Shown: one piece after another, positions 10,571 through 64,000 of the stretch
How the letters are laid out: every line of letters starts with the position of its first letter
Position numbering within the stretch: position 1 is the stretch's first letter
Origin: Clostridia bacterium
Lineage (GTDB): Bacteria; Bacillota; Clostridia; Christensenellales; UBA1242
DNA: 64,000 nucleotides
NCBI GenBank assembly: GCA_045597505.1
Contig: JAZLKE010000034.1
Coordinates: forward strand, 11,288 to 75,287
Direction of reading: 5' to 3'
Position numbers and translations under genes: made by a program
Notes under the pieces: model-generated
The model's database searches: none
Told to the model about the DNA's origin: nothing
What the model saw: the letters and a program-made list of their open reading frames with translations, nothing else

Positions 10571-11128
10571 ATGCACAACACCAAACAAATTGAAACGGCG
10601 CGCTTGATTTTGCGCGAATATAAAATTCAAGATGCGGAACAGGTTTTTAATAACTGGGCATCTGATCCTGCATGCTGTCAATTTTTAAGTTTTGAACCGC
10701 ACAAAGACCTTGCCGAAACTAAAAAGATTATACAAGGTTGGATTAACGATTACGCCAATGGCAGTTATGACTGGGTTATTGAAACCAAAGACGACCACGA
10801 AATTGTTGGTAGCATTTCGGTGACCAACGGTCATCATAAATTTGATTTGAAAAATGGCATTGCCGAAGTCGGCTACTGTTTTGGTTCTCAATATTGGGGA
10901 CATGGTTACGCGACCGAAGCTTTGCGCGCGGTTATTGAATACTTGTTGAAAGAAGCTGGCAAGTACTTGGTCGAAGCCCGTTATATCAGCGGCAATCCTG
11001 CCAGTGGTCGTGTCATGCAAAAAGTCGGCATGAAACAAGATGCCGTCTTGCGCGCCCGCCGTATCAACAAAGTCACCAAAGAACGTAACGACTTGATTGT
11101 TTATTCAATTACAAAAGATGAATTATAA
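10571..11128 (+). CDS. GNAT family N-acetyltransferase (RimJ/RimL-like)
   Basis: TARLILREY...WGHGYATEALRAVIEY acetyl-CoA binding pattern. Confidence 0.85.
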   Translation: MHNTKQIETARLILREYKIQDAEQVFNNWASDPACCQFLSFEPHKDLAETKKIIQGWINDYANGSYDWVIETKDDHEIVGSISVTNGHHKFDLKNGIAEVGYCFGSQYWGHGYATEALRAVIEYLLKEAGKYLVEARYISGNPASGRVMQKVGMKQDAVLRARRINKVTKERNDLIVYSITKDEL

Positions 11129-50529: not shown

Positions 50530-50802
50530 ATGTCACAGAAAATGACACAAAACGAAATCGCAGAAATCGTTAAAAAATTTGGTAAAAAGGAAGGGGATAC
50601 TGGCAGTCCAGCGGTTCAAATCGCTTTGTTAAGCAAGCGTATTGAAGAATTGACCGAACATTTGAAGGTTCACAAACAAGATAAACACAGTCGTCGTGGT
50701 TTGACCTTAATGTTGGGTAAACGTAAACGCTTGTTGGACTACGTTGAAAAAACTGACCTTAACGCTTATCGCGAATTAAAGAAACAATTAGGTTTGCGTT
50801 AA
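50530..50802 (+). CDS. rpsO: 30S ribosomal protein S15
   Basis: [37 protein letters not shown] signature. The start may instead be the in-frame ATG at 50542 (MTQNEI...). Confidence 0.95.
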
Positions 50803-50804
50803 TT

Positions 50805-50836
50805 AAAAATGCCCCGTTGTTGCGGGGCTTTTTTAT
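50805..50836 (+). terminator. rpsO rho-independent terminator
   Basis: GCCCCG ttgttg CGGGGC followed by a T-run. Confidence 0.85.
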
Positions 50837-50841
50837 TGCAA

Positions 50842-50916
50842 TTTTACTGACAAAGGAATGGCAAATCTACAATAAAATTTCATTTGTGTTAGTTTGCAAT
50901 AGGTTTGTCAGTAAAA
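50842..50916. repeat. 13-bp inverted repeat TTTTACTGACAAA / TTTGTCAGTAAAA with a 49-nt spacer at the core/accessory junction
   Basis: Arms at 50842-50854 and 50904-50916, verified base by base. ATTGCAA (50835-50841) and TTGCAAT (50894-50900) lie next to them. Confidence 0.8.
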
Positions 50917-50944
50917 ATCCGATAAAAAATATGGTCCGTTAGTA

Positions 50945-50958
50945 AATCAAATTTGATT
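50945..50958. repeat. 14-bp perfect palindrome AATCAAATTTGATT upstream of the first element gene (operator-like)
   Basis: Verified base by base; about 50 nt upstream of ATG 51009. Confidence 0.8.
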
Positions 50959-51008
50959 GAAAGCGGACTTTTTTATGTGCCAATTTCAATCTTGAAAGGG
51001 GCAGCAGA

Positions 51009-51299
51009 ATGGCAAAAGGAAAAATATTGGGCGTATTTGACAAACCCAAGTTTGCAAATAAGGATAAGGTTTCCATACTAAGGAAACAAATATCCGATAA
51101 ACAAATTTTCATTGATGATTTACCCAAAGATGTATTGGAGAACCTGTTGCAATGCGCAATCGCAAGAATTGACCGAAATGAAAATGGTGGCGAAGGCGAT
51201 GAGCGCGATTTCAAAGATTTATGGTGCGACCAAGAATTCATTGTCGATGAATTATTTGAAGAACTTGAAAAAGAAGTAAAGGCAGGCTGTTATGAATAA
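51009..51299 (+). CDS. Hypothetical protein (96 aa) with an acidic C-terminus
   Basis: AAAGGGG SD and an ATGAATAA overlap with the next ORF; no family recognised. Confidence 0.55.
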   Translation: MAKGKILGVFDKPKFANKDKVSILRKQISDKQIFIDDLPKDVLENLLQCAIARIDRNENGGEGDERDFKDLWCDQEFIVDELFEELEKEVKAGCYE

Positions 51300-51471
51300 C
51301 AAAAAGGAATTGACTAAGCCAATAACATTTAGGCTTACGGAAACGATGTACGGAAATATTATTGCAGAAGTTGACCGATTAAACCTTCGCAAAATGAGTG
51401 ATGTGGTTCGTAAAGCGGTTGCCGAATATTTTGACAATCACAAAAAAGAAATCGAAGGAGACAAGAAATGA
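51292..51471 (+). CDS. Ribbon-helix-helix (CopG/MobC-like) protein, 59 aa, absent from the ORF track
   Basis: MNNKKELTKPITFRLTETMYGNIIAEVDRLNLRKMSDVVRKAVAEYF fits a beta-strand/helix/helix pattern. Both ends are translationally coupled to neighbours (ATGA overlaps). Confidence 0.6.
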   Translation: MNNKKELTKPITFRLTETMYGNIIAEVDRLNLRKMSDVVRKAVAEYFDNHKKEIEGDKK

Positions 51472-51665
51472 ATAAAGTCGAACACAAGGTCGAGTGCTGT
51501 GTAATTCCCAGTTACATCTTGCTGGATACTGAATTAACTTCCGGAGAAAAAGAGCAGTTGATACAAGCCGCTCTTGAAAATGGAACTGGAATGGTACACG
51601 AAAGTGATGTGTTAGCTATGAAGGCAGCAAAAAAAACAAAAGGGGTTAAATCATGGAAGAATTAA
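51468..51665 (+). CDS. Hypothetical 65-aa protein, a truncated paralog of the N-terminus of the next gene
   Basis: It shares the motif CVIPxxIxxDxxL(T/S)SxEK with the 117-aa protein downstream. Confidence 0.5.
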   Translation: MNKVEHKVECCVIPSYILLDTELTSGEKEQLIQAALENGTGMVHESDVLAMKAAKKTKGVKSWKN

Positions 51666-52006
51666 CTAACCAACTTGGCTATTACTGTGTAATCCCAGCG
51701 CCCATTATGAGAGACGGTGGTTTGTCGTCTGATGAAAAAATTCTTTATGGCACAGTTTCTGGTATGGCGCGCGAAAAAGGGTATTGTTGGGCAGGCAATG
51801 ATACTTTGGCCAAAATTTTTCCAGACAAGGAAGGTAAACCAAAAGATGAAAGGACGATTCGCCGTTGGTTAAACCATTTGGAAGAAGTTGGTTATATAAA
51901 ACGCACACTTATTTATTTTGAAAATACTAACCAAATCAAAGAACGCCGTATTTATTTAACCGGGAAATGTACACCAGTTCCCGAAGGAGATTTATACAAT
52001 GAGTAA
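51653..52006 (+). CDS. Winged-helix DNA-binding protein of the plasmid/phage replication-organiser type
   Basis: YYCVIPAPIMRDGGLSSDEKILYG...GYCWAGNDTLAKIF...ERTIRRWLNHLEEVGYIKR matches the common HTH_36/Rep-like pattern in Firmicutes mobile elements. Confidence 0.6.
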   Translation: MEELTNQLGYYCVIPAPIMRDGGLSSDEKILYGTVSGMAREKGYCWAGNDTLAKIFPDKEGKPKDERTIRRWLNHLEEVGYIKRTLIYFENTNQIKERRIYLTGKCTPVPEGDLYNE

Positions 52007-52022
52007 TTATTGTTTTAATTTT

Positions 52023-52098
52023 GTCCGTACCCCTGGGGGCACCAGTGTCCCCACCCCTACGGACATTTCCGCCCGTACCCCTGGGGGCATGAATGTCC
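52023..52098 (+). repeat. Two 28-nt GC-rich direct repeats (24/28 identical) 48 nt apart, with embedded inverted repeats
   Basis: GTCCGTACCCCTGGGGGCACCAGTGTCC at 52023-52050 and GCCCGTACCCCTGGGGGCATGAATGTCC at 52071-52098. GTCCGTA (52023-29) pairs with TACGGAC (52058-64). A degenerate third copy GTCCGTCCAGGGCA lies at 52293-52306. Confidence 0.85.
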
Positions 52099-52109
52099 TA
52101 GATATAATA

Positions 52110-52125
52110 ATAACGCGTGCGTTAT
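52110..52125. repeat. Palindrome ATAACGC-GT-GCGTTAT followed by a very AT-rich stretch
   Basis: The 7-bp arms were verified. The AT-rich run spans 52124-52155. Confidence 0.75.
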
Positions 52126-52330
52126 ATGTATTGAATTTATATTTATTATTACACAAGAGAAACAATAGGGGAGTTTTTGAAGAACTAGCCATAGCCAGAA
52201 AATTCCGACACGGCGAATTTGAGAAAAAGGCGGTGGCCGCCATGTAAAATTTTTTTTCTTGTGTTCTCTAAAAGCAGCCCGAAGAAAACGAAGTCCGTCC
52301 AGGGCAGACGGCAAAAAGGAAACAAAAACA

Positions 52331-52663
52331 ATGAACAGATTTGATTTTATTGGAAATTTGACAAAAGACGTTGAGCTGGGTAAGGCCGGTGAAGTGTCGT
52401 TGGCGCGCTTTATGCTGGCGGTAAACCGACCATACAAAAACAAAGAAGGCAAGTACGATGCCGACTTTATCCAACTGAAAGCCTGGCGTGAAGCTGGCGA
52501 AACTATTGCGAAGCACGTAAAGAAAGGCGACAAGCTACGCGTTGAAGGTCGTGTTGAAACTTCGACCTATGAAAAAGACGGTGAAAAACAATACAGCACA
52601 GAATTTATTGTTACCGGCTTTGAATTTTTGAGCAGCAAAAAAGCTGAACCGGAGTCGAAATGA
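52331..52663 (+). CDS. ssb: Element-encoded single-stranded DNA-binding protein lacking the acidic C-terminal tip
   Basis: MNRFDFIGNLTKDVEL OB-fold start. It ends ...SSKKAEPESK rather than D-D-x-P-F. The ATG at 52331 follows AAAGGAAAC; the track start at 52259 is an upstream extension. Confidence 0.85.
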   Translation: MNRFDFIGNLTKDVELGKAGEVSLARFMLAVNRPYKNKEGKYDADFIQLKAWREAGETIAKHVKKGDKLRVEGRVETSTYEKDGEKQYSTEFIVTGFEFLSSKKAEPESK

Positions 52664-52833
52664 TTTCAAACATGGCGCCTATCGTCTTCCCCGACGAAAT
52701 CGAAGTAGCTGAAAGAATGGCAAAGAGAAAAGCACAAGAAGAAAAAATGGCCAATTATTTCGGCCAACCAAAAACTGAAACCGAAGATGATGCCGATGAA
52801 GTCATTGTAGTGGAGAATCCAGATGAACTATAA
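52660..52833 (+). CDS. 57-aa strongly acidic small protein, absent from the ORF track
   Basis: MISNMAPIVFPDEIEVAERMAKRKAQEEKMANYFGQPKTETEDDADEVIVVENPDEL. ATGA overlap with ssb and an 11-nt overlap with the ArdC-like gene. Confidence 0.5.
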   Translation: MISNMAPIVFPDEIEVAERMAKRKAQEEKMANYFGQPKTETEDDADEVIVVENPDEL

Positions 52834-55393
52834 AGAGAAAATCGAATTTGAACGCCAACAAATAGCCGACCGTATTTTGGAAGAAATCCAAAACAACACT
52901 TTGGAATGGAGTCGTGGTTGGCACGGATTGGATAACGGCGCAGCAGTTAATGCTAAAACCGGCAAAAGGTACAATGGCACCAACTTAATTGCTTTGTATA
53001 TCCAAGCCAAAAAACAAGGTTACAAAGACCGACGTTGGCTAACTTTTAACCAAGCAAAAGAACTTGGCGCACAAGTTAAAGCTGGTGAAAAATCCACAAG
53101 AATTTTTCATTGGAATGAATACGATGTAAAAACTAAATCTGAACCGAATTGGAAAGAAATCAATAAATTATCCAAAGATGACAAAGAACAGTATATTCTC
53201 GACAATATTCGATACAGCATTAGTTTACACAGTGTTTTCAATGCGGAACAGTGCAGTGGCTTGAAAGAATATGTGGCGCCAAAATTAAGCGCCAAAGAAA
53301 TGGCCGAGCAAAACGAAAAGATTGAACGTGTGATTGCCAACAGTGCAGCACCGGTACTGTATGACAGTGAGAACCGGGCGTATTATTCCACCAAGGAAGA
53401 CAAGATTCACCTACCGGCGATTGAAATTTTCAAAACCAAAGACGATTACTACGCAACAGCTTTGCACGAAATTGCACATTCGACCGGCCACGCAAGCCGA
53501 TTAAACCGTGATATGTCCGGTGAATTTGGCAGCGAAAAGTACGCCAAAGAAGAATTGCGCGCGGAGTTTGCGTCATTGTTTATACAAAACGAGTTGGATC
53601 TAAACATTGACGGCAAGCACTTTGAGAACCATTCGGCTTATATCCAAAATTGGACCGAAGCAATTCAAGAAGACAAAAATGTCCTTTTTAACGCAATTAA
53701 AGACGCCGGTGATATTGCGACGTATGTTCGCGAACATTACGCTGAGCAAGAAAACACAAAGAAAAATGAAGGAGAAGTTATGGCAGAAGAACAAACAAAA
53801 ACCGATGAAGAACGATTAGAGAAAATTCTAAAAGAACGAAACCTAAATGAAGATAAAAGTTTTGCAAAAGATACTGATTATTTTGGTTTTGGAAGTTTAG
53901 ATGCGCTTGAAAAAGAACATAAATCTGGCTACATTACTAATGTAATAAAAAGCTACAGTGATTGGGCCGATGAAAGTGGCCGCCGTGCTGCTAGTGATTT
54001 GAGCGATGAAGAATTTGAATTTGTCCAGAAACATTACCAATTTGGTGATATGCCAGATGATGTCATTAACAAAATCGTTAATGAAGACAATAACTACTTC
54101 AAAAACAAAAACATTGAAGCTTACAAGTTTACGGCATACCAAACTGTCCTTGCTAACTTAAAAGAAAAACAAGCGATGCCGGAACAAGCAGTGGTGGAAG
54201 AAAAGAAAACACAAGAAAAAAATAAAATTGAACCGCTGGAAATTCACCACGCAACTGAAAAAGCAGTCTTGGTTAAATTAGCGATTGCTGGTGAAGAAAA
54301 GCTAAAAGACACTTGGTGGCCAAAATCACGAGTTGATTTAGACAAAGACGAAAAGAACGTTGTGGCGATTGATAACTACTTGCAAAAGCAATATGGCAAT
54401 GTTTTATCCAAACAAGCCGAAATTACAGCAGCCGCAGTGGGGAAGAGTGTTGCCACTGAACAACCGAAGTTGTCCCCAATGGAATATGCGCAAAAGATGA
54501 ACAATATGCGCTTGGATAACTTGGCCAAAAATGTGCCGGCTGAAATGAAGGCATTGCCAAACTGGTGTGTTTTGAAAATTTACAAAGACAAAGCAACTGG
54601 TACTACCAAAAAATTCATTGTTAATGCAAACAATCCACAAGGTGGCTGGGCTAAACACAATGACCCAAGTAACTGGACAACTTTTGACAAAGCAATGGAA
54701 TATGCAAGAAAGAATAACGGTGCCGGACTTTCTTTTGCGATTAAAGGCAGTGGCTTTAACGCTTTCGATTTGGACCATTGCTATGACAAAGAAACAAAAA
54801 CCTACAATGAAACCGCTAAAAAGTTTTTGGCCGATTTGCCAAATTCCTATGCCGAACGGTCCGTATCTGGAACCGGCTTGCATATTTTCACCAAGGGTTC
54901 CGTTTGTGAAAATGGTAAATACAACGAAGCGCGCGGTGGAGCAGCAGTGGAAGTGTTCGAAACCTGGGGCTTCGTTTCGATGACGGGAAATGTTGTTGAT
55001 GAACAACACAAGAACCTGGTTGATTTACCTGACGAAGTCAAAAAATCAATCCAAACTGAAATTGGCGAAAAGAAAGTTTACCAAGCGCCAGCGCAAAATC
55101 GAAACCAATTCCACAACTATGCGCGAAGCGATAGCGAAGTGATTGATGTAATCCGCAAAAGCAAGAGATCGAACGAGTTCGAGTCATTGATGAACGGTGC
55201 GGATTTATGTGGCGACCACAGTCGCAGCGATTTACGCTTAATGGGCATCTTGGCATACTTCACAAATTCTAATACCAACCAAATGGAAACTATCTTCAAA
55301 CAGAGCAAGCTTTATCGTCCCGATAAAGGTGATTCTTATGTCGAAAGAACGGCCAAATTTGCAGCCAACAATGCAAGCCAACAGGCACGATAA
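52823..55393 (+). CDS. Fusion protein: ArdC-like ssDNA-binding N-domain plus HExxH metallopeptidase, a long linker, then a C-terminal AEP primase-polymerase-like domain with a PriCT-like tail
   Basis: YNGTNLIALY...RWLTFNQAKELGAQVKAGEKS (ArdC_N pattern). ALHEIAHSTGHASRLNR (HExxH). C-terminal FDLDHC...SVSGTGLHIF (D.D plus SxSGxGxH) and SRSDLRLMGILAYF. Confidence 0.7.
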   Translation: MNYKEKIEFERQQIADRILEEIQNNTLEWSRGWHGLDNGAAVNAKTGKRYNGTNLIALYIQAKKQGYKDRRWLTFNQAKELGAQVKAGEKSTRIFHWNEYDVKTKSEPNWKEINKLSKDDKEQYILDNIRYSISLHSVFNAEQCSGLKEYVAPKLSAKEMAEQNEKIERVIANSAAPVLYDSENRAYYSTKEDKIHLPAIEIFKTKDDYYATALHEIAHSTGHASRLNRDMSGEFGSEKYAKEELRAEFASLFIQNELDLNIDGKHFENHSAYIQNWTEAIQEDKNVLFNAIKDAGDIATYVREHYAEQENTKKNEGEVMAEEQTKTDEERLEKILKERNLNEDKSFAKDTDYFGFGSLDALEKEHKSGYITNVIKSYSDWADESGRRAASDLSDEEFEFVQKHYQFGDMPDDVINKIVNEDNNYFKNKNIEAYKFTAYQTVLANLKEKQAMPEQAVVEEKKTQEKNKIEPLEIHHATEKAVLVKLAIAGEEKLKDTWWPKSRVDLDKDEKNVVAIDNYLQKQYGNVLSKQAEITAAAVGKSVATEQPKLSPMEYAQKMNNMRLDNLAKNVPAEMKALPNWCVLKIYKDKATGTTKKFIVNANNPQGGWAKHNDPSNWTTFDKAMEYARKNNGAGLSFAIKGSGFNAFDLDHCYDKETKTYNETAKKFLADLPNSYAERSVSGTGLHIFTKGSVCENGKYNEARGGAAVEVFETWGFVSMTGNVVDEQHKNLVDLPDEVKKSIQTEIGEKKVYQAPAQNRNQFHNYARSDSEVIDVIRKSKRSNEFESLMNGADLCGDHSRSDLRLMGILAYFTNSNTNQMETIFKQSKLYRPDKGDSYVERTAKFAANNASQQAR

Positions 55394-55614
55394 AAAGGGG
55401 GCTTGATGATGACGAAATTTGGCCTAAAAAACACGAAAAATAAAGGAAGCGGGATAAGCGGTGACGCACTTTGCCACTTTTTGGCAACTCACCCCGTAGG
55501 GGTGGGGAGTGACGCACTTTGACAAGTCTATGCGTCACATTTGCGTCACCTTGTGATGCGACAATTTGGAAACCAAATTTCGTTGAGAAAAATTGAGAAA
55601 AAAGGGAGTTAAAA
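55394..55614. promoter_or_regulatory. Candidate origin of transfer (oriT): a dense array of direct and inverted repeats upstream of the relaxase operon
   Basis: GTGACGCACTTTG at 55461-73 and 55509-21. Inverted TGCGTCAC at 55531-38 and 55542-49. Hairpin CACCCC-GTA-GGGGTG at 55490-55504. Outer IR CGAAATTTGG 55413-22 / CCAAATTTCG 55573-82. Hairpin AATTTGG-AAA-CCAAATT at 55563-79. Confidence 0.6.
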
Positions 55615-56091
55615 ATGGCAACAAAAAACACAAAGAAAAATAAACTTACAGTCCGCTTGGCAGATGCCAAAACGCTGTCACTTTTTAATGAACTTTTAGC
55701 AACCAAGGCTTTCCAAAGTCAAAATGTTCTGGCCAACAAAATCATTGATTTTGCAATTAAAGATTTTGCTACAATTTACTTGCCGGGGTACAAGCAAACA
55801 AAACAACCAGCAGCTTCGGCGCAACTCGATGCCAAGGCGGAAAGAATGTTAAAACAAATTAAAGCTACCGTTGAAGATACTCATGTGATGTACATGGTGA
55901 TTGAGCGTATGGTGGCCACTCTTTACAACACCAAAGCAGCTGAACTGAATGGTGAAAAAGTTTCACCGGAAGAATTTGGTACGGGTATGATGACCGATTT
56001 ACCACCCGAATTCCAAGATATGGAACAGGGAGTTATCCAAGGACGCGTAAGACGTTCGGTGGAAGACGACAAGGGGGTGGACGATGAGTAA
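55615..56091 (+). CDS. Putative relaxosome accessory protein with an N-terminal RHH-like fold
   Basis: KLTVRLADAKTLSLFNELL...NVLANKIIDFAIKDF strand-helix-helix pattern. It is translationally coupled to the relaxase (8-nt overlap). Confidence 0.5.
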   Translation: MATKNTKKNKLTVRLADAKTLSLFNELLATKAFQSQNVLANKIIDFAIKDFATIYLPGYKQTKQPAASAQLDAKAERMLKQIKATVEDTHVMYMVIERMVATLYNTKAAELNGEKVSPEEFGTGMMTDLPPEFQDMEQGVIQGRVRRSVEDDKGVDDE

Positions 56092-57298
56092 CAATGTATT
56101 GTTTCAAATTAAGTATTCCGCCAAAAATCCACCGCGTAATTTACCGACTGCAAAAAAGCTTGAATACGCCCAAGAGCGACAATTCTTCGATTGGACCGCA
56201 CCGTACAACTACATTTCGTACACGTTGAACGAGAAAAAAGTGGAGAAGTACAAGGACTTCCAGAGTTATGCCAGCCGTCAAGGCAACCTTGGATTGTTTT
56301 GCGGTGACAAGGTTTACACCGAAGAAGATTTGGCCGAAATCAAGGAACAACTGAAAAACACTGGCAGCCATATCTGGCACGGCTTCATTAGTTTTGATGA
56401 AGAAACAAGCCCGAAGTTCCAGGTCCAAGAACAAGCAATGCACTTTTTGAAACAGCACTTTACTGATTTCATTAACCGTACACATCTTAACGCCGACAAT
56501 ATTTGTGTGGTGGCTTCGTTGCACCGGGATACATTGCACCGTCATATCCACTTTTCATTTTTTGAGAAGGAACCAACGCACGTGGACAAAAACGGTAAAG
56601 TTGGCTATACAACCAAGGGCAACTTCAAACAATCCGTGATTGATAACTGGCTTGTGTCGGCCAATATGGCAGTGGCCGGCAATGATAATTATTACAGCAG
56701 CCGTAATGCTGTGATTTCGAAACTAAAAGAAATGAAAGGGGATATTACGGACCAAGAGATGCAATTAAAATTGTTATCTTTGGCAAAGAAATTTCCCAAG
56801 GAAGGCCGTTGGTCATACAACAGTGAGAACATGGCCGAATTGCGTCCGGAGATTGACAAGCTGGCCACTTTTATCTTGTGTTCTCAACCAGAAGTAAAAA
56901 AACTACACCGAGATTTTTTGCGCGCACTTGCTGAACGTAACAAGAAAGTTGAAGGAATTAAGAACGACAATAAAATTCGTAGCCAGGTTGATTATGTGAA
57001 AAACTTACGCAAGGACTACAAAGCCCGTGTGGGTAATTTAGTAATTGACTTGGCCAAGGAAATGCGCAAGCAATACAAGCCAGCATATTACAAGGAAAGC
57101 AGCAAGCAAAAAAAATACGAAGCCAGGGATATGCGCCGACATGCGGCCAAGGTTTACCGACAAGCTACTGCCACAAGTGCTTTGTTAAAAATGCTGGGCA
57201 ACGTGCAGAAAGGTGTACAAGCTGAATTTACCGATACCGTTAAAGATGTTGAGTACATGATGATGCAAGAAATGATGATGCAGGGGGCTAGCGCATGA
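56084..57298 (+). CDS. Putative conjugative relaxase (MobL/MOBP-like) with a histidine-triad motif
   Basis: YISYTLNEKKVE...GNLGLFCGD N-terminal pattern and SLHRDTLHRHIHFSF (HxDxxxHxH). It sits between the accessory protein and the T4CP. Confidence 0.6.
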   Translation: MSNNVLFQIKYSAKNPPRNLPTAKKLEYAQERQFFDWTAPYNYISYTLNEKKVEKYKDFQSYASRQGNLGLFCGDKVYTEEDLAEIKEQLKNTGSHIWHGFISFDEETSPKFQVQEQAMHFLKQHFTDFINRTHLNADNICVVASLHRDTLHRHIHFSFFEKEPTHVDKNGKVGYTTKGNFKQSVIDNWLVSANMAVAGNDNYYSSRNAVISKLKEMKGDITDQEMQLKLLSLAKKFPKEGRWSYNSENMAELRPEIDKLATFILCSQPEVKKLHRDFLRALAERNKKVEGIKNDNKIRSQVDYVKNLRKDYKARVGNLVIDLAKEMRKQYKPAYYKESSKQKKYEARDMRRHAAKVYRQATATSALLKMLGNVQKGVQAEFTDTVKDVEYMMMQEMMMQGASA

Positions 57299-59496
57299 AA
57301 TCGAAGAAGCACATCATTTTAATCGTTAGTTTCTTGGCCGTAAGTGCCATTGTGCTTTTGCTCACAATGGTAGTAATCGCTTCGCTTGTTTCGAAACGCT
57401 TTGTCTTTAACGGCCAAATTGTTTTGGGCTGGTTCGCAATCATACTAGCAGGCGTTGGATTGTGGTGGGTGAACAAGAAGTCCAACATTGGCAAGCAAGC
57501 AATGAAGGAAAACAAGGATTTGGAAGACACACATTTCCTAACGCCACACGAAATTAAAAACAATGCCGGTTTAACGGTGACCAAGTTCACTAACTTGGGT
57601 GTAGTGGTGGACGGAGTACCGGTTGCGGCCAAAGTGAACAAACAAGAAACTGATGCCGAAGTCATTTTGGCCAAACCGATCCACACACTTGTAATTGGTA
57701 CAACCGGCTCTGGTAAAACGACCACTTTTGTTAGTCCTACGATTGAAATCTTATCCAGGACAAAAACCAAACCAAGTTTGGTCATTACAGACCCGAAAGG
57801 GGAGTTGTACACTTTGCACGCTGATACTTTGAAGAAACAGGGCTACAACGTGCAAGTGCTGAATTTGAGCGAAGTATATAATTCGGCCCGCTGGAATCCG
57901 TTTAGCGGTATTCTGGCTAAGCAAGCGAAAATTGATGCGGCCAGCTACGATGAAATAGTGAAAGAATTGAACAAGTACCATGTACTTGGCAAGGTTTTTG
58001 ACACAAGGGAAGCCGCAAAACATGAAGTGCGAAAGGTTCGTCAAACTTTGATTGATGAAATCTATGCTGATATGGCCGATATTATCTATACGATGTGTCC
58101 GGTGGAGAACCAGCACGACAGCACGTGGCAAAAGGGTGCTAGAGATTTAGTCTTTGCTGTTGCACTAGCTTTATGGGAAGACGTGCGTGACCACAAGATT
58201 AAACCGGAACAGTTAAGCTTGTTTAACATCTACAAAATTTTGACCGAACACGCAAACGACAATCCAACTGATTTGATTGAATACTTGGAAAACCGTGATA
58301 AATTTTCCAAGGTTTGGGGTCTGGCCAAAACTGTGTTGGTTACCACTGATAAAACATTGACCAGTTACCTAGGTGATGTTAGTCAATACATTTCGTTCCT
58401 GAATGACCGCGGAATACAGAGTTTAACGGCCGGCAACGATATTGACTTTACTCATTTCGATGAAGAACCGAATGTGTTGTTTATTAAAATACCTGATTCC
58501 AAAGACAACCGTCACAAGTTAGTGTCTTTGTTATTAGTGCAGATGTATAAGGGGCTTGTTGATAAAGCCGGGGATAACCAACGCAGCGGTCGTACTAAAA
58601 CCGAAGAGTTGTTGCGTACAACCTACTTCATCTTAGATGAGTTTGGTAACCTACCAAAGTTAAACAAGATTGACAGTATTATTACTGTGGGTCGCAGTCG
58701 TAAAATTTTTATGATACCGATTATCCAGAACTTCAAGCAGCTCGATAACAAGTATGGTAAAGATACGGCCGAAATCGTTAAATCGAACTGCAATATTAAA
58801 ATTTTCATCCAGGCTGGTGATGCTGCAACCACGGAAGAGTTTTCTAAACTTTGTGGCAAGCACAAAATTGTTAAGAAATCATTTAGTGAGAACAAGGACA
58901 CTAGCGTTTCGGCCAGTGTGGAAGAACGACCGTTGATTACACCGCACGAATTGCAAAACTTAAACGATGCAAGCGCTGGTCGTATGGGCAATGCCGTTGT
59001 CTTGGCGCTGGGTAAAAATCCGTTGAAAGCAGTTTTCACACCGTGCTTCAAGGCAAAAAGTTTGTATCCGCTAGTGGAATCTGCCTTGGCCGATGTGGAA
59101 CAAGAAGAGTTTAACGAGCGAGAGTTATATGTTGATATAACTAAAATCGAAGGTACGAAGCCGGAAGAAAAAACACAAGAAGAACAAGCAGCTGATAAAC
59201 CGGACGAATGGGCCGAACAGAAAGAAACCAAAGTAGATGATGAAAAGGACGAACTATATAAAAAGTTAGAAAAAAAGTTAGTTTCGTTGAAACTTGCATT
59301 GAAACCATTTTTGACTGCAAAAGAATTTGAGTCGTTGATGAACAGCGATATGATTGAAGTTTTTGATGTACTTGAAACTTTGATTGAAAAATTACAGAAG
59401 AAAGATGTTGTGGCCGCTGCAATGGCGATTGAACTGAAAAGTTTTGTCCAGCACAAGATGTTGACTTATGCCGATGTTGACCAGAACACAGCGTGA
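57295..59496 (+). CDS. Type IV secretion coupling protein (VirD4/TraG family)
   Basis: Two N-terminal TM helices, Walker A GTTGSGKTT, Walker B FILDEFGNL, and an acidic C-terminal tail. Confidence 0.88.
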   Translation: MKSKKHIILIVSFLAVSAIVLLLTMVVIASLVSKRFVFNGQIVLGWFAIILAGVGLWWVNKKSNIGKQAMKENKDLEDTHFLTPHEIKNNAGLTVTKFTNLGVVVDGVPVAAKVNKQETDAEVILAKPIHTLVIGTTGSGKTTTFVSPTIEILSRTKTKPSLVITDPKGELYTLHADTLKKQGYNVQVLNLSEVYNSARWNPFSGILAKQAKIDAASYDEIVKELNKYHVLGKVFDTREAAKHEVRKVRQTLIDEIYADMADIIYTMCPVENQHDSTWQKGARDLVFAVALALWEDVRDHKIKPEQLSLFNIYKILTEHANDNPTDLIEYLENRDKFSKVWGLAKTVLVTTDKTLTSYLGDVSQYISFLNDRGIQSLTAGNDIDFTHFDEEPNVLFIKIPDSKDNRHKLVSLLLVQMYKGLVDKAGDNQRSGRTKTEELLRTTYFILDEFGNLPKLNKIDSIITVGRSRKIFMIPIIQNFKQLDNKYGKDTAEIVKSNCNIKIFIQAGDAATTEEFSKLCGKHKIVKKSFSENKDTSVSASVEERPLITPHELQNLNDASAGRMGNAVVLALGKNPLKAVFTPCFKAKSLYPLVESALADVEQEEFNERELYVDITKIEGTKPEEKTQEEQAADKPDEWAEQKETKVDDEKDELYKKLEKKLVSLKLALKPFLTAKEFESLMNSDMIEVFDVLETLIEKLQKKDVVAAAMAIELKSFVQHKMLTYADVDQNTA

Positions 59497-59498
59497 GA

Positions 59499-59520
59499 TT
59501 TGTATAGACATCTATACAAA
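59499..59520. repeat. 22-bp palindrome TTTGTATAG-ACAT-CTATACAAA (copy 1 of the GTATAGACATCTATACA core)
   Basis: The 9-bp arms were verified. It is followed by an A-run rather than a T-run, so it is not a canonical terminator. Confidence 0.85.
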
Positions 59521-59542
59521 AAAACAAAAAAAAGGAGAAAAA

Positions 59543-59761
59543 ATGACATTAAAAAAAGAATTGTTAATTATTTGTGGAAGTTATTTGTTGATAAATATTG
59601 TATTTCTTGCCGTTTGTTTAGCTATAAAGGCTTACGTAGTGATTGAATATGCCTATTGGGGAACATTGATTGTTGGGATTGAAGCTTCAATTATTGGAAT
59701 TGTTTATTGCATTATCAAGGGGGTTGCGGAAGCAAAGAAAAACAAAGGAGAACAAAAATGA
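59543..59761 (+). CDS. Small two-TM membrane protein (72 aa)
   Basis: AAAGGAGAAAAA SD, MTLKKELLIICGSYLLINIVFLAVCL..., ATGA overlap with parA. Confidence 0.55.
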   Translation: MTLKKELLIICGSYLLINIVFLAVCLAIKAYVVIEYAYWGTLIVGIEASIIGIVYCIIKGVAEAKKNKGEQK

Positions 59762-60537
59762 AAGTTATAGCGATAGTAAATCAAAAAGGTGGAGTTGGAA
59801 AAACCACAACGGCAGTTAATTTGTCGTGCGGTCTGGCTAAAAAAGGATACCGAGTACTAGCTATTGACCTAGACCAACAAGGTCACTTGACAAAAAGCCT
59901 TGGTATTGATGTCAAGGAAATGGGTATTGTTAATACTGCATCTAAATGGTTGATGAATAGTTTGCCATTGGACGATGTTATTGTAACCGTGCATGGTATT
60001 GATGTTGTACCAGCTGATATTACTTTGGCCAGTTTGGAATTAAAACTGCAACAAGAGTTAATAGACAGGGAATATACACTTGGCAAAGAAATTTCAAAAG
60101 TTGCTGACCGTTATGATTATGTAATTGTCGACAGTTCGCCAAGTTTTAATATCATTACGATAAATATATTAACAGCGGCTGACCGTGTAATTCTTCCACT
60201 GTGTCCGGATTTTCTAAGTAAAGACGGTGGTTACAAACTTTTGGAATCTATTGAGCAAATCCAGAAACGCATAAATCCAAAGTTAAAACTTACCGGATTT
60301 TTACCAACATTGGTTGATAAGCGTTGTAACAATGCAGCATCGTTCGCAGAAGCTGAACAACTTACCAAACAGTATGGTGGAGTAGTGTTTGGTGAAGGTA
60401 TTCGTTTAGCTAGTGTTTTACGCAAGGCGCCCGAACATGGAATGAGTATCTTCGATTATGATCCAAATTCGGCCGCAGCTAAGGACTACCAAGCATTTGT
60501 TGATAAATTTGTGGAAATCGAAGGAGAAGAGAGATGA
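59758..60537 (+). CDS. parA: ParA/Soj-type partition ATPase
   Basis: MKVIAIVNQKGGVGKTTT deviant Walker A and the VIVDSSPS motif. Confidence 0.9.
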   Translation: MKVIAIVNQKGGVGKTTTAVNLSCGLAKKGYRVLAIDLDQQGHLTKSLGIDVKEMGIVNTASKWLMNSLPLDDVIVTVHGIDVVPADITLASLELKLQQELIDREYTLGKEISKVADRYDYVIVDSSPSFNIITINILTAADRVILPLCPDFLSKDGGYKLLESIEQIQKRINPKLKLTGFLPTLVDKRCNNAASFAEAEQLTKQYGGVVFGEGIRLASVLRKAPEHGMSIFDYDPNSAAAKDYQAFVDKFVEIEGEER

Positions 60538-60911
60538 CAACACAAGGAAAATTAGTTGGTTCAGTGTTAGATGATTTACTGGCGGTAAATAAACCGATTT
60601 TAGCCAAACAAGAAAAAACAATCTTGCTGAGTTTGCGTATGAGTACCGGGTTAAAAGCTGCTTTCAAAAAGTATTGTTTTTTGCACGACAAAGATATGAC
60701 TAAAATTCTTGTTGATTTTATCTTTGACCAACTGCAAGATTTTGAAAAACTCGAAAAGATTGAAAACAAATATGCCGGCAGCACCACGCCGTGGAATTTT
60801 CGTATTCCAGAGAAAATTCGTGATGATTTTCACCGCACGTGCAAAGAACACGGGACTGATGCTACTACGCAACTCACGCAATTTATTTTAAGGACGGTGG
60901 AAAATGCGTAA
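60534..60911 (+). CDS. Putative centromere-binding/regulatory protein with two tandem ribbon-helix-helix-like units
   Basis: TILLSLRMSTGLKAAFKKYCFLHDKDMTKILVDFIFDQL and WNFRIPEKIRDDFHRTCKEHGTDATTQLTQFILRTV. ATGA overlap with parA. Confidence 0.55.
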   Translation: MTTQGKLVGSVLDDLLAVNKPILAKQEKTILLSLRMSTGLKAAFKKYCFLHDKDMTKILVDFIFDQLQDFEKLEKIENKYAGSTTPWNFRIPEKIRDDFHRTCKEHGTDATTQLTQFILRTVENA

Positions 60912-63900
60912 GCGTATAGACATCTATACAGTTTTATTAGTTGCCGTGCTGGCTATTGTGTCCGGTCTATTTTCTCTTGTGTTTTCTAACCAAAATACAA
61001 CAAATAGTGCCGATGAAAATACAATGACCACAACACTGCAACCAGCAGCAATTAATGGTGGTGGAATTTATAATTTCGATAGTGGTAGTAGTAATAATCC
61101 TAATAGTATTTGGTTTATTCAAGTTCAAGGTACTGGTAGTGGTTGGCAAGAGTGTACAGTCACTAATGGTATAAATCTTTCTATATCACAAGCAACTATA
61201 CGTTTTTCGTGGGGTGCAAAACCATATAGCAATAGGGGTGACCGATTTTTACGTACAAAAAAAGGAACATGGGAAATTTCTTGTAATGGGCAAAAAGTCG
61301 CTAGTGGTACAGGTGTTCCAGGTGTGAGTGATACTGGAAAAGAAGGAAAACAGACAGGCGATTGGTATACTGGATATTTATCAGAAGGTAATTACACTGT
61401 TAAGGCCGATTTAATTATGAACAACTGGATTGGCCATGAATGGGGAGAAAGTACATCAATCAATTTCATTGTCGACCGAACTGCACGCAGAATTATCGTC
61501 ACCAAGGTGGAAAGTAATAATAGTAATAATACAGTGGCACGGAATGGGATTACAAACACAGCCGTGAAGGCTAGCAATAATGAATCTGGTACAATGCAAT
61601 ATAGTCGAACTAACTTGAATGGAAGTAAACCAACCAGTGCTACCACTAGCTATACTGCTGGACAAGAACTTTCGGCCGAAGGACATTATTGTTTTACGGC
61701 TACAGATAGTGCTGGAAATACCAGTGCAATTTATAGTTTGACGATTGATAAAACGAAACCACAAAACAATTTTGGATATACTGTAAACGCAGGTAAAGCA
61801 TATACCAACGATGATATTCATTACATGCCGACTGATAATTATTTGATGAAGGATGTGGCTGTTAAGTATAAAAATGGCCAGTGGGCGCATTCGGCTGCCG
61901 AAGCAGCCAGTTATGGCTATAACGTAATCTTTAATGATAAACAAATCACAGTGCCGAAAGAAAGTGGTAATGGTGAATGGTATTTCCAAGCCGAAGATAT
62001 GGCAGGAAACAAAAGTGATGAATATTGTGTTGTATTAAGTTATTTGGATACCTTTGGTAACCAAGAGCAAATCCGCAATAGTTACATAAGTAACTACTGG
62101 TACAATATCGCGTTGCCGGCCAATATTTATGGCGATGAAGCTGGAATCTATTCTGCTTCGAGTTACGAAACAGCTTTGGCTTTTGCTACACAAAAGGAAT
62201 GGGATTTTCGTATAACACCGACGCCAAACGGCTGGCGTTATGTCAATTCGAGTAATGGTAACTTGTCGCAGGAGTATACGGATAGGGCAGAACTTGATGC
62301 AGTAGTCGATAAATACGCCAAGTCGTATATTAAAGACCGAGTTGTGGCCAAGAATGGTACTAATAATTTTGATAAAATTATTAACGATGAACTTTATTTG
62401 GATAAGACGGCGTTAGTACGACAATGGATAGCGAAGCCAGATTTTCTGCCAGATGACGATTTGCCAATCTATATGATGCGTAAAGATTTCAAATTTGTTG
62501 ACCCCAAATTTCCTTCTCAAACCTATGTTAAGATGCAAATGATTGCCAACGACTTAGGTTTAGTATCCAGGGCAGAAGTAAATTTAGCGTATGATGTAAA
62601 AGTTGAAAACCAAGTTTTAACTACTGGTAATAATAGCCAAGGATATTATTTAGTTACTGAATGGGATAATGCTGGAAATAGTGAACAGTACTATGTTTAT
62701 ATTGATTTGTCGGCACCAACCTTAACGGTTGATGTAGTTTATGGTAATAACACAACAGAAAATATTACTTTTGATGAGAGTAAAATTGAAGAGTTGGCGG
62801 GTACGTTCCGTTATTTATCGCTGGATATGCAGCAGATTGCCGATAGTATTGATCGCTTTGTTACAATGAAGATTAACGGTCGCAAACTATCTGATGCAGT
62901 TTATATCCAGGGCGATGAATTGCCAATTCTTGATGGAGTGGAATACTATGGCAATTATACGATTGAACTCTATGACCGCAGTGGTAACACACTGACTTTT
63001 GTTATTACGATTGCTGGCGAAGCACCAAAGATGACACACAGTTCATTGAACAGTGATACCAGCTGTCGTTTAACTTTGGAAGTTCCAGATTATAACGACA
63101 CAATAGAAGAATTAAAATTGTTCTTCATTACTTACGAAGGCGTATATGTCGAACTAACCGAAGACCATAAGGAAGTTCTGGTTACGCCAGGCACGTTGCA
63201 ATATACTTTAACAACTGGCGGTAAATATACAATGTGGTACCGGGATTTATTTGGCCGCGAAACATATTGCACGCCAGTGTTCTATTTGAAAGGTTTACCA
63301 ACGGCCACATTGTCCGGCGTTACCGACGGTGGAATCACTAACCGAAATGTGTCGTTGAAATATAGTGAAGGTAATTCGTTAATCTTGTACCGCGTGGAAA
63401 ATGGCACTAAAACGGAAGTTCCACTTGACGGCACAATTTATACTCAAACCTACGATGAAACCAGCCATAGATACACGGCCATGCTTATGGCCAACGAAGA
63501 CACTACGGCTTCGTACGAGTTTTTCCTATACAAAGGGGACGACAGGAATTTATTCGTTGAATACACGTTTTCGATTGACTGCATTATTGCACCAATTTAC
63601 ATCTACGACAATAATGGTAATGCAATAGCCAAAAATGCTTTTTCCAATAAACCATTTCAAGTTTATTGGAATGAAACGGTAACCTTGCGCTATTATACCG
63701 ACAAAACACCGGGTGGAGAAACCGGTGCAGTGCGCTATACAATGGGAACATTGCTGTCGGCGGACGGTACCTATTACTTTACACTGAAAGATAGTGTTGG
63801 CAACCAAGAAAATTTTACAATTTTGCTTGATACGGTTGTTTCCTATGAACTAGGTGGAGAATATGTGAGACTTGGCGAACATGAATACATTGCCAAAGAT

Positions 63901-64000
63901 GATATACAGTTTTCAATAACGGAATCCACAAGTGTGTTAAGTTTTACCAGCATTCCAGATGTGGTGAATGGTGGCTATATCATTTTGGAAGGTGTGTATA
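60904..64000 (+). CDS. Large membrane-anchored surface protein with repeated Ig-like modules; 3' end beyond the window (>1032 codons)
   Basis: I translated every 60-nt line from 60904 to 64000 in this frame and found no stop. N-terminus MRKRIDIYTVLLVAVLAIVSGLFSLVF (TM anchor). Recurrent module ends include TATDSAGNTSAIYSLTIDKTKP, AEDMAGNKSDEY, EWDNAGNSEQYYVYIDLSAPT, LYDRSGNTLTFVITI and LKDSVGNQENFTILLDT. It is not in the ORF track, probably because it has no stop within the window. Confidence 0.85.
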   Translation, partial: MRKRIDIYTVLLVAVLAIVSGLFSLVFSNQNTTNSADENTMTTTLQPAAINGGGIYNFDSGSSNNPNSIWFIQVQGTGSGWQECTVTNGINLSISQATIRFSWGAKPYSNRGDRFLRTKKGTWEISCNGQKVASGTGVPGVSDTGKEGKQTGDWYTGYLSEGNYTVKADLIMNNWIGHEWGESTSINFIVDRTARRIIVTKVESNNSNNTVARNGITNTAVKASNNESGTMQYSRTNLNGSKPTSATTSYTAGQELSAEGHYCFTATDSAGNTSAIYSLTIDKTKPQNNFGYTVNAGKAYTNDDIHYMPTDNYLMKDVAVKYKNGQWAHSAAEAASYGYNVIFNDKQITVPKESGNGEWYFQAEDMAGNKSDEYCVVLSYLDTFGNQEQIRNSYISNYWYNIALPANIYGDEAGIYSASSYETALAFATQKEWDFRITPTPNGWRYVNSSNGNLSQEYTDRAELDAVVDKYAKSYIKDRVVAKNGTNNFDKIINDELYLDKTALVRQWIAKPDFLPDDDLPIYMMRKDFKFVDPKFPSQTYVKMQMIANDLGLVSRAEVNLAYDVKVENQVLTTGNNSQGYYLVTEWDNAGNSEQYYVYIDLSAPTLTVDVVYGNNTTENITFDESKIEELAGTFRYLSLDMQQIADSIDRFVTMKINGRKLSDAVYIQGDELPILDGVEYYGNYTIELYDRSGNTLTFVITIAGEAPKMTHSSLNSDTSCRLTLEVPDYNDTIEELKLFFITYEGVYVELTEDHKEVLVTPGTLQYTLTTGGKYTMWYRDLFGRETYCTPVFYLKGLPTATLSGVTDGGITNRNVSLKYSEGNSLILYRVENGTKTEVPLDGTIYTQTYDETSHRYTAMLMANEDTTASYEFFLYKGDDRNLFVEYTFSIDCIIAPIYIYDNNGNAIAKNAFSNKPFQVYWNETVTLRYYTDKTPGGETGAVRYTMGTLLSADGTYYFTLKDSVGNQENFTILLDTVVSYELGGEYVRLGEHEYIAKDDIQFSITESTSVLSFTSIPDVVNGGYIILEGVY
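60914..60929. repeat. 16-bp palindrome GTATAGACATCTATAC (copy 2), inside codons 4-9 of the large ORF
   Basis: The 17-nt core is identical to 59502-59518 (60914-60930). Confidence 0.85.

Follow-up and report, generated by a model that had tools for sequence, protein, structure and literature searches.

What is the DNA that follows rpsO in this genome, where exactly does it begin, and what brought it there? The question arises for a 64,000-nt stretch of contig JAZLKE010000034.1 (assembly GCA_045597505.1, Clostridia bacterium; hereafter the window), in which the chromosomal genes end with rpsO and the remainder is occupied by genes typical of conjugative elements. Positions 50887 to 64000 are likely the first ~13 kb, counted from the left end, of an integrative and conjugative element (ICE) of ~23 kb, belonging to a family in uncultured ruminant-gut Clostridia that is moved by a DDE transposase. 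The initial annotation, made from the sequence of the window alone, had described inverted repeats and then 13 kb of mobile-element genes past the rpsO terminator; the hairpin and T-run, the repeat arms and the family searches given below all agree with this description.

All comparators used throughout are metagenome assemblies of uncultured lineages. The relatives of the host, retrieved with FtsZ as the query, are metagenome-assembled genomes (MAGs) of uncultured Clostridia/Eubacteriales, mostly from the ruminant gut (71-93% identity), and the gene order P-type ATPase - ftsZ - rpsO is kept across their genomes. After rpsO the initial annotation had expected pnp. In the relatives, however, the next block is infC-rpmI-rplT-SpoU methylase-YebC-RuvC and never pnp: infC-rpmI-rplT lies 3' of rpsO in every relative that reaches far enough (loci L001, L003, L005, L010-L013, L015 and L088-L097), the remaining contigs stopping soon after rpsO. 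The spacer between rpsO and infC is variable in the relatives, from 0.27 to 5.4 kb. Since infC is absent from the 64-kb window, at least 13.1 kb has been inserted between rpsO and infC, and the expectation of pnp is inapplicable to this lineage. A look-up with one infC protein (P0205) retrieved element-free genomes only. The features around the junction are:

50542..50802, + strand: rpsO (ribosomal protein S15), final host gene before the element; Pfam Ribosomal_S15 at 2e-33, 87-97% identical in related MAGs
50811..50836, + strand: terminator-like sequence, the rpsO intrinsic terminator, with a hairpin at 50811-50828 and a T-run to 50836
50844..50871, + strand: solo right-end repeat TTACTGACAAAGGAATGGCAAATCTACA, a fossil resembling the right terminal inverted repeat (IRR) of the family; outer arm of the inverted repeat, host-resident and outside the present element
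50872..50886, + strand: 15-bp target ATAAAATTTCATTTG, left copy of the expected flanking direct repeat
50887..50914, + strand: left terminal inverted repeat (IRL) TGTTAGTTTGCAATAGGTTTGTCAGTAA; the element begins at 50887, and the 28-mer is present at the relatives' junctions
50930..50978, + strand: conserved hairpin and T-run inside the IRL; an RNAalifold model of 6 elements has 15 pairs, with compensatory changes at 5 of them

The left boundary can be placed to the nucleotide. The window and the empty sites share sequence through ...AAATTTCATTTG (50886), where homology stops, and the junction reads host ...CATTTG | TGTTAGTTTGC... at 50886|50887. Beyond the shared sequence, the empty sites continue with ACTA, TTGACA-16-TGnTATAAT and the infC leader. 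Comparison with related genomes lacking the element, which the initial annotation had proposed, shows that the empty sites hold the 15-mer once, followed by the infC promoter. The 28-mer of the IRL recurs at other junctions with no mismatch in L008 and L081/L082, one in L004, three in L086 and four in L083. The same junction is present in independent assemblies (L004, L008, L081/L082 and L086), and a chimeric join is therefore ruled out. A 25-nt IRL sequence, used as an exact pattern, matched none of the JGI metagenome contigs scanned.

Homologues of the window's relaxase led to colinear elements at the rpsO site (L081, L086), at frr (L083) and downstream of yajC (L084). Two are complete after overlapping loci were joined on one contig: E81 (L081+L098), at 23,580 bp, and E86 (L086+L100), at 22,611 bp. 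Their contigs run uninterrupted from rpsO through the element into infC. Both carry an IRL and an IRR, and the 15-mer ACAAAATTTCATTTG, found once in empty sites, stands on both of their flanks; this would be the expected product of a 15-bp staggered cut by the transposase. The element termini are TGT...ACA and the 28-bp terminal inverted repeats are imperfect: 20-21 of 28 positions match between the IRL and the reverse complement of the 28-nt IRR (20 in a hand alignment; 7 substitutions in a scan), and 17 of 26 in a 26-nt hand comparison with the right end of L087. The left part of E81 and E86 reads small ORFs, HTH_36, repeats, SSB, ArdC-primase, an ORF, MobL, type IV coupling protein, ParA and orf125; the right part reads a ~1500-aa protein, T4SS_pilin, a lipoprotein, a 496-aa protein, an 890-aa VirB4-like ATPase (P-loop_TraG/DUF87), small ORFs, a 336-aa protein, a ToxN-domain protein and the transposase. 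Between the window and these two elements, the conserved core proteins are 57-79% identical and three small ORFs 45-67%; orf96, orf65 and orf97 of the window have no match in E81 or E86.

Within the window, which ends 13 kb into the element, Pfam searches reveal no integrase, recombinase or transposase, and no duplicated target is visible, as the initial annotation had stated. The enzyme was identified in the relatives, where the transposase is the last gene and adjoins the right repeat. In the MAG that owns L004, a separate look-up with infC yielded L087, which starts inside an element and reads 341-aa ORF, rve transposase, ...AGTACTGACAAAGGATTGGCAATTTTACA, 15 nt and the infC promoter. The L087 transposase gene (1443-2460) is split by a frameshift near nt 2140, reflecting either a pseudogene or an assembly error, and was reconstructed for analysis. 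The reconstructed product is a single ~340-aa protein with HTH, rve and rve_3 domains. The best of all NCBIfam transposase models is IS481 (NF033577, 1e-47, 161.8 bits); IS30 models are not among the NCBIfam matches at E<=1e-3, and PF06782 is absent from the relatives' transposase, which has rve and rve_3 instead. Homologues P0227 and P0228 sit on the contigs that carry the L081 and L086 relaxases. No other recombinase, whether tyrosine or serine, was found among the called genes of E81 and E86, nor any IRL-like copy near the transposase gene. As the sole recombinase, with no IRL-like copy adjoining it, the transposase therefore belongs to the 23-kb unit; the lack of such a copy beside the gene rules out a separate, nested insertion sequence (IS). 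The initial annotation had listed an ICE with its integrase at the far end among the possibilities. The complete relatives do have a far-end recombinase, but it is an rve IS481-like DDE transposase and not an integrase.

The repeats next to the junction record a longer history. The inverted repeat past the terminator has arms at 50829-50865 and 50893-50929 that are 81% complementary (core TTACTGACAAA / TTTGTCAGTAA). Variants of the 28-mer at 50844-50871 occur in the element-free relatives L005, L010 and L088-L097, always 19 nt before the infC -35 (for example L005 8104-8131, L010 12377-12404 and L088 9718-9745), and the same 28-mer is the true right terminus beside the transposase in L087, L098, L100 and L101. 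Such solo repeats at this distance from the infC -35 are present in nearly all relatives, whether or not these carry an element. The fossil repeat is degenerate in L001 and L015, and in L008 it retains the 3' end of a transposase gene. Judged from the sequence, the inverted repeat after rpsO is an old solo right repeat plus the left repeat of a new element. The simplest reading is that the site has been occupied repeatedly, each newcomer having duplicated the 15-mer that separates the promoter from the older right end. The arrangement [fossil IRR]-15-[IRL...IRR]-15-ACTA-[-35] is found in L081 and L008 and, for its left half, in the window. We also considered the host arm and the IRL as half-sites B and P' of an attL used by a site-specific recombinase, an idea that was dropped as the host arm is a true right terminus beside the transposase.

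The infC promoter has an extended -10 and is a 12/12 match to the consensus; 19 nt separate the IRR from its -35. A metagenome scan identified transposases with 46-49% identity, and their elements end in a related repeat, TTACTGAAAAATGCTTGACAAACATCA. Among seven further, independent flanks, five (L111, L112, L145, L146 and L162) have a promoter-like site (at least 10/12) beginning 19-20 nt past the IRR, against a background of 4.3e-4 such sites per position in the same loci (binomial P ~1e-14). A sixth flank, L136, has TTGACT at +19, where the contig stops; no promoter is seen at the L133 flank, which is an exception to the distance rule.

A comparable rule has been described for TnGBS1 and TnGBS2, streptococcal ICEs with a DDE transposase at one end (Brochet 2009; Guerillot 2013, 2014; PMC3942029, PMC4701971). 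They have dissymmetric inverted repeats and insert in a fixed orientation at a fixed short distance upstream of a sigma-A -35 (PMC3942029, PMC4701971); for TnGBS, ISLre2 and ISKra4 this distance is 15-17 nt, with IR-right proximal (PMC3942029). The family described here resembles TnGBS in being a transposase-driven ICE with asymmetric inverted repeats, the same insertion logic and orientation at the right junctions seen in relatives, and a ParA and a replication-type protein beside the conjugation genes. However, the TnGBS transposase is a Mutator-like p-MULT enzyme, PF06782 (PMC4701971), whereas that of the relatives is IS481-like with an rve fold, and membership of TnGBS itself was rejected on this ground. 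The offset is 19-20 nt in the relatives rather than 15-17, and the flanking duplication is 15 bp. ParA occurs in both, but the Rep-like protein is of the HTH_36 type here and RepA_N there, the relaxase here is MobL and the hosts are rumen Clostridia. Because TnGBS transposases carry PF06782, the promoter-distance rule is reached here through an unrelated protein fold. On balance we lean towards the view that an IS481-like rve-fold lineage evolved TnGBS-style targeting (19-20 nt upstream of a sigma-A -35, with a 15-bp duplication) independently of the Mutator-like TnGBS/ISLre2 enzymes, and was recruited by at least two kinds of large element, the ~23-kb ICE family and elements of more than 10 kb with tail-fibre genes and diversity-generating retroelements, the latter probably transposable prophages.

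These latter elements were encountered at L112, L133, L145, L146 and L162, where they exceed 10 kb and have one of the 46-49% identical transposases at their right end. About 10 kb upstream of the match to the transposase they encode tail-fibre repeats, DUF6273 proteins and a reverse transcriptase. Taken as a set, these genes look like a diversity-generating retroelement, and the elements may be transposable prophages for which the promoter-distance rule holds as well.

The genes in the 13 kb past the junction are all on the same strand, and the AT skew differs from that of the upstream chromosome. Their families were assigned by Pfam, NCBIfam and PDB searches:

51009..51299, + strand: orf96, first element gene; a homologue in L083, 59% identical, has the same position; no Pfam match
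51292..51471, + strand: 59-aa protein; no Pfam or NCBIfam match, homologues in L004, L083 and E86
51653..52006, + strand: HTH_36 winged-helix protein, Rep-like or a regulator; Pfam PF13730 at 2.5e-9, 57-60% in L004, E81, E86 and L083
52022..52098, no strand: GC-rich iteron-like repeats CCGTACCCCTGGGGGCA in three copies, one of which is inverted, directly after the HTH_36 gene
52331..52663, + strand: SSB, single-strand DNA-binding protein; Pfam SSB at 2.5e-20
52823..55393, + strand: fusion of ArdC-N, zincin metallopeptidase and NrS-1-type primase-polymerase; Pfam ArdcN, MPTase-PolyVal and NrS1-1 HBD
55461..55552, no strand: four GTGACGCA / TGCGTCAC repeats (two direct, two inverted), between the primase gene and orf158/relaxase
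55615..56091, + strand: orf158, small protein overlapping the relaxase start; 46-64% in all relatives, no family match
56084..57298, + strand: MobL-family relaxase; Pfam PF18555, 97.4 bits against a cut-off of 28.5
57295..59496, + strand: type IV coupling protein (T4CP), VirD4-like, CD1115 family; Pfam T4SS-DNA_transf and TraG-D_C, NCBIfam NF045973 at 272 bits against a cut-off of 250
59758..60537, + strand: ParA-type partition ATPase; Pfam AAA_31 and CbiA, NCBIfam ParA models match below cut-off
60534..60911, + strand: orf125, conserved partner of ParA; 57-72% at the same position in E81, E86 and L083, 42% over 59 aa in L084, no family match
60904..64000, + strand: N-terminal ~1030 aa of a ~1500-aa protein, frame open to the window end; no Pfam or PDB match

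The window encodes both a relaxase and a type IV coupling protein, as expected of an ICE; the VirB4-type ATPase and mating-pore genes lie beyond it and are seen in the colinear relatives only. All 68 homologues of the relaxase come from uncultured Clostridia or metagenomes, and the NCBIfam model of the MobP2 subfamily scores 79 bits on it where 200 are required. The C-terminal 356 aa of the ArdC fusion match NrS-1-type primase-polymerases in PDB at 1e-18 to 1e-20. No window protein matches RepA_N replication proteins in Pfam. The repeats at 52022-52098 comprise two direct 26-mers 48 nt apart with the inverted copy in between, and are a candidate HTH_36 binding site or origin. At the equivalent place in L004 and E81 the translation shows a short peptide motif repeated three times, implying DNA that is likewise repeated yet different in sequence; that the repeats beside the HTH_36 gene differ suggests a protein-DNA recognition that co-evolves at an origin or operator. 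The repeats at 55461-55552 are a candidate oriT or operator, orf158 is a candidate relaxosome accessory protein and orf125 a candidate centromere-binding adaptor. The counterparts of the large ORF at the window end are 1500-1516 aa long in E81, E86 and L083 and precede a T4SS pilin-like gene.

Most gene labels of the initial annotation hold: the Pfam, NCBIfam and PDB matches bear out the Rep-like winged-helix protein, ssb, the ArdC-primase fusion, the relaxase, the T4CP and ParA. The label of ribbon-helix-helix regulator had been given to the 59-aa protein, which finds no Pfam or NCBIfam match, and is unconfirmed; it stays a guess, as does the adhesin label of the large terminal ORF, because that ORF matches nothing in Pfam or PDB. 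The oriT-like region that it had marked is compatible with the four GTGACGCA repeats but is not proven by them.

Other origins for this DNA have to be weighed. The window copy might be a defective or truncated remnant, its right end lost or decayed or its transposase inactive, and so a fossil and not a mobile ICE. Solo right-end fossils and truncated copies are indeed common at the locus (L005, L008, L010 and L088-L097), the L087 transposase is frameshifted and the right half of the window's element is unseen; nevertheless, all 13 kb consists of long intact ORFs colinear with the complete relatives, and the window IRL is identical at 28 of 28 positions to that of the complete element E81, so that we regard a remnant as unlikely. 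It is very improbable that the ICE was integrated by a tyrosine or serine recombinase encoded at its far end, acting on a 15-bp att core upstream of infC. The complete relatives encode no such enzyme, and their ends are long inverted repeats with TGT/ACA termini adjoining an rve transposase. One could read the 15-bp repeat as an att core and point to the fact that most family members occupy the same rpsO-infC site, but a member, L083, sits at the unrelated frr site, 7 nt past the frr stop codon, which argues against a single-site integrase, and the transposase relatives share the promoter-distance rule at unrelated sequences.

The initial annotation had also left room for an integrated plasmid or for a misassembly that joined a plasmid to the chromosome. 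The Rep-like HTH, ParA, SSB and primase genes and the lack of a recombinase in view speak for such an origin of the conjugative DNA. Either is nevertheless barely credible. The identical junction is found in at least four independent assemblies, two contigs span rpsO, the element and infC, and the plasmid-like genes, the Rep-like and ParA genes among them, are conserved internal modules of a transposon-like element. Nothing similar is present in PLSDB, where megablast with the 13 kb gave no match and the relaxase and T4CP reach 26-31% identity, 31% at most, to any plasmid-borne protein.

Several observations weigh against the window being part of a transposase-moved ICE with promoter-distance targeting. 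Only relatives (E81, E86, L087 and L101) show the right boundary, transposase and direct repeat, so that the right half, transposase, right repeat and second 15-mer of the window's own copy are predictions, and the closest complete relatives are only 57-79% identical in their core proteins. Look-ups for proteins identical to the window's rpsO product, taken from either start codon, and to its relaxase gave no match in the collection searched. The transposase scores below the curated IS481 cut-off (161.8 against 224 bits). L180, a truncated relative, has its nearest promoter-like sites at +14 or +28 and not at +19, and the more distant member L084 has no recognisable IRL. In one MAG, L004 (11741-11797) together with L087 (2532-2580) places the IRL 2 nt past the fossil repeat with no matching 15-bp repeat, which could reflect a deletion, a strain mixture or a circle-junction-like arrangement.

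Taking the window's DNA as the left part of such an ICE, we infer that it carries the same right half as its relatives and propose the following life cycle. The element would act as a giant insertion sequence between 28-bp imperfect inverted repeats. On insertion it would duplicate a 15-bp target, and its right repeat would come to lie 19 nt ahead of the -35 box of a strong sigma-A promoter, in this case the infC-rpmI-rplT promoter. The transposase would excise or copy the element as a circle, which could be maintained in a plasmid-like manner by HTH_36 with the iteron-like repeats, SSB, the ArdC-primase, and ParA with orf125. MobL would nick oriT, probably at the GTGACGCA repeats (55461-55552), and the coupling protein would pass the strand on to a compact type IV secretion system (T4SS) of Gram-positive type. 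The predicted parts of this system are the large surface protein, the pilin-like protein, the 496-aa membrane protein and the VirB4-like ATPase, the last three of which lie beyond the window. In the recipient, the element would reinsert upstream of a strong promoter. From the sizes of E81 and E86, the window's element should end at ~73.5-74.5 kb in window coordinates, with a predicted IRR of about CTGACAAA...TACA followed by ATAAAATTTCATTTG, ACTA and the infC promoter.

Compared with the IS481 family, the relatives share the best transposase model, the single HTH + rve + rve_3 protein and the TGT...ACA termini, but the moved unit is 23 kb with ~25 genes instead of ~1 kb, targeting follows promoter distance with a 15-bp duplication, and the score is sub-cut-off. 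With the pLS20-type MobL conjugative plasmids of Bacillota the element shares MobL (PF18555), a VirD4-type coupling protein and a Gram-positive T4SS; it differs in the low identity to plasmid-borne relaxase and T4CP noted above and in being integrated and bounded by inverted and direct repeats. A free conjugative plasmid would likewise not be flanked on single contigs by rpsO and, in the relatives, infC. Unlike Tn916/Tn1549-type elements, neither the window nor the complete relatives encode a tyrosine or serine recombinase. ICE6013 of Staphylococcus aureus is a compact Gram-positive ICE with an rve-fold IS30-like DDE transposase in place of an integrase; the transposase here is without an IS30 match, and the target rule, repeat lengths and conjugation genes differ. 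To our knowledge, DDE-transposase ICEs are known from few lineages only, namely TnGBS, the Mycoplasma ICEs and ICE6013. A full-text literature search found no description of an ICE with an IS481-type transposase, an absence in the literature searched and not a proof.

An rve-type enzyme that measures a fixed promoter distance would add a second solution to 'safe-harbour' insertion, reached independently. Two independent solutions, if true, would open the mechanism of promoter sensing to comparison, be it contact with RNA polymerase, with the sigma factor or with the shape of promoter DNA. The ICEscreen database for Bacillota holds 22 DDE signature proteins (PMC9585547). With such small DDE signature sets in ICE-finding tools, elements like that of the window may be missed or left without boundaries.

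The ends of the element have further features in common. The hairpin at 50930-50978 starts 16 nt inside the left repeat, has an invariant loop, TAGTAAATCAAATTTGATTGAA, and may act as a terminator facing inward or as a subterminal binding site, perhaps for the transposase. At every visible right end, an outward promoter-like site, TTGAC(N17)TA(T/C)AAT, lies between the transposase stop and the right repeat (L087 2466-2497, L098 11035-11063, L100 ~11018-11046 and L101 ~11013-11045). The hairpin inside the IRL and the outward promoter-like site inside the IRR may insulate the element from host transcription and keep the downstream operon expressed. In complete relatives, the gene for the ToxN-domain protein (type III toxin-antitoxin / abortive infection) comes shortly before that for the transposase (L098 8915-9775, L100 8926-9792 and L101 8869-9465).

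On the host side, rpsO likely starts at the ATG at 50542 and not at 50530, the start of the longest ORF: AGGAGG abuts the ATG at 50530, and its spacing is normal for 50542. The resulting 86-aa product is also called in L086 and L088-L094, and a 90-aa product in L081 and L082. The infC leader (~150 nt; L001 11630-11780 and equivalents) is highly conserved in the clade and has a terminator-like hairpin at its end; at the gathering threshold, neither the relatives' infC leaders nor the window region match any Rfam family. The contigs of L002, L004, L007, L008, L009 and L015 end within ~1 kb past rpsO. Such frequent breaks in the MAG contigs of the clade fit a rpsO-infC spacer that is recurrently occupied, with stacked fossil ends. 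Between rpsO and the fossil repeat, the relatives carry a variable cargo, including a GT2 glycosyltransferase, a 674-aa protein and small ORFs, which may be debris of earlier occupants.

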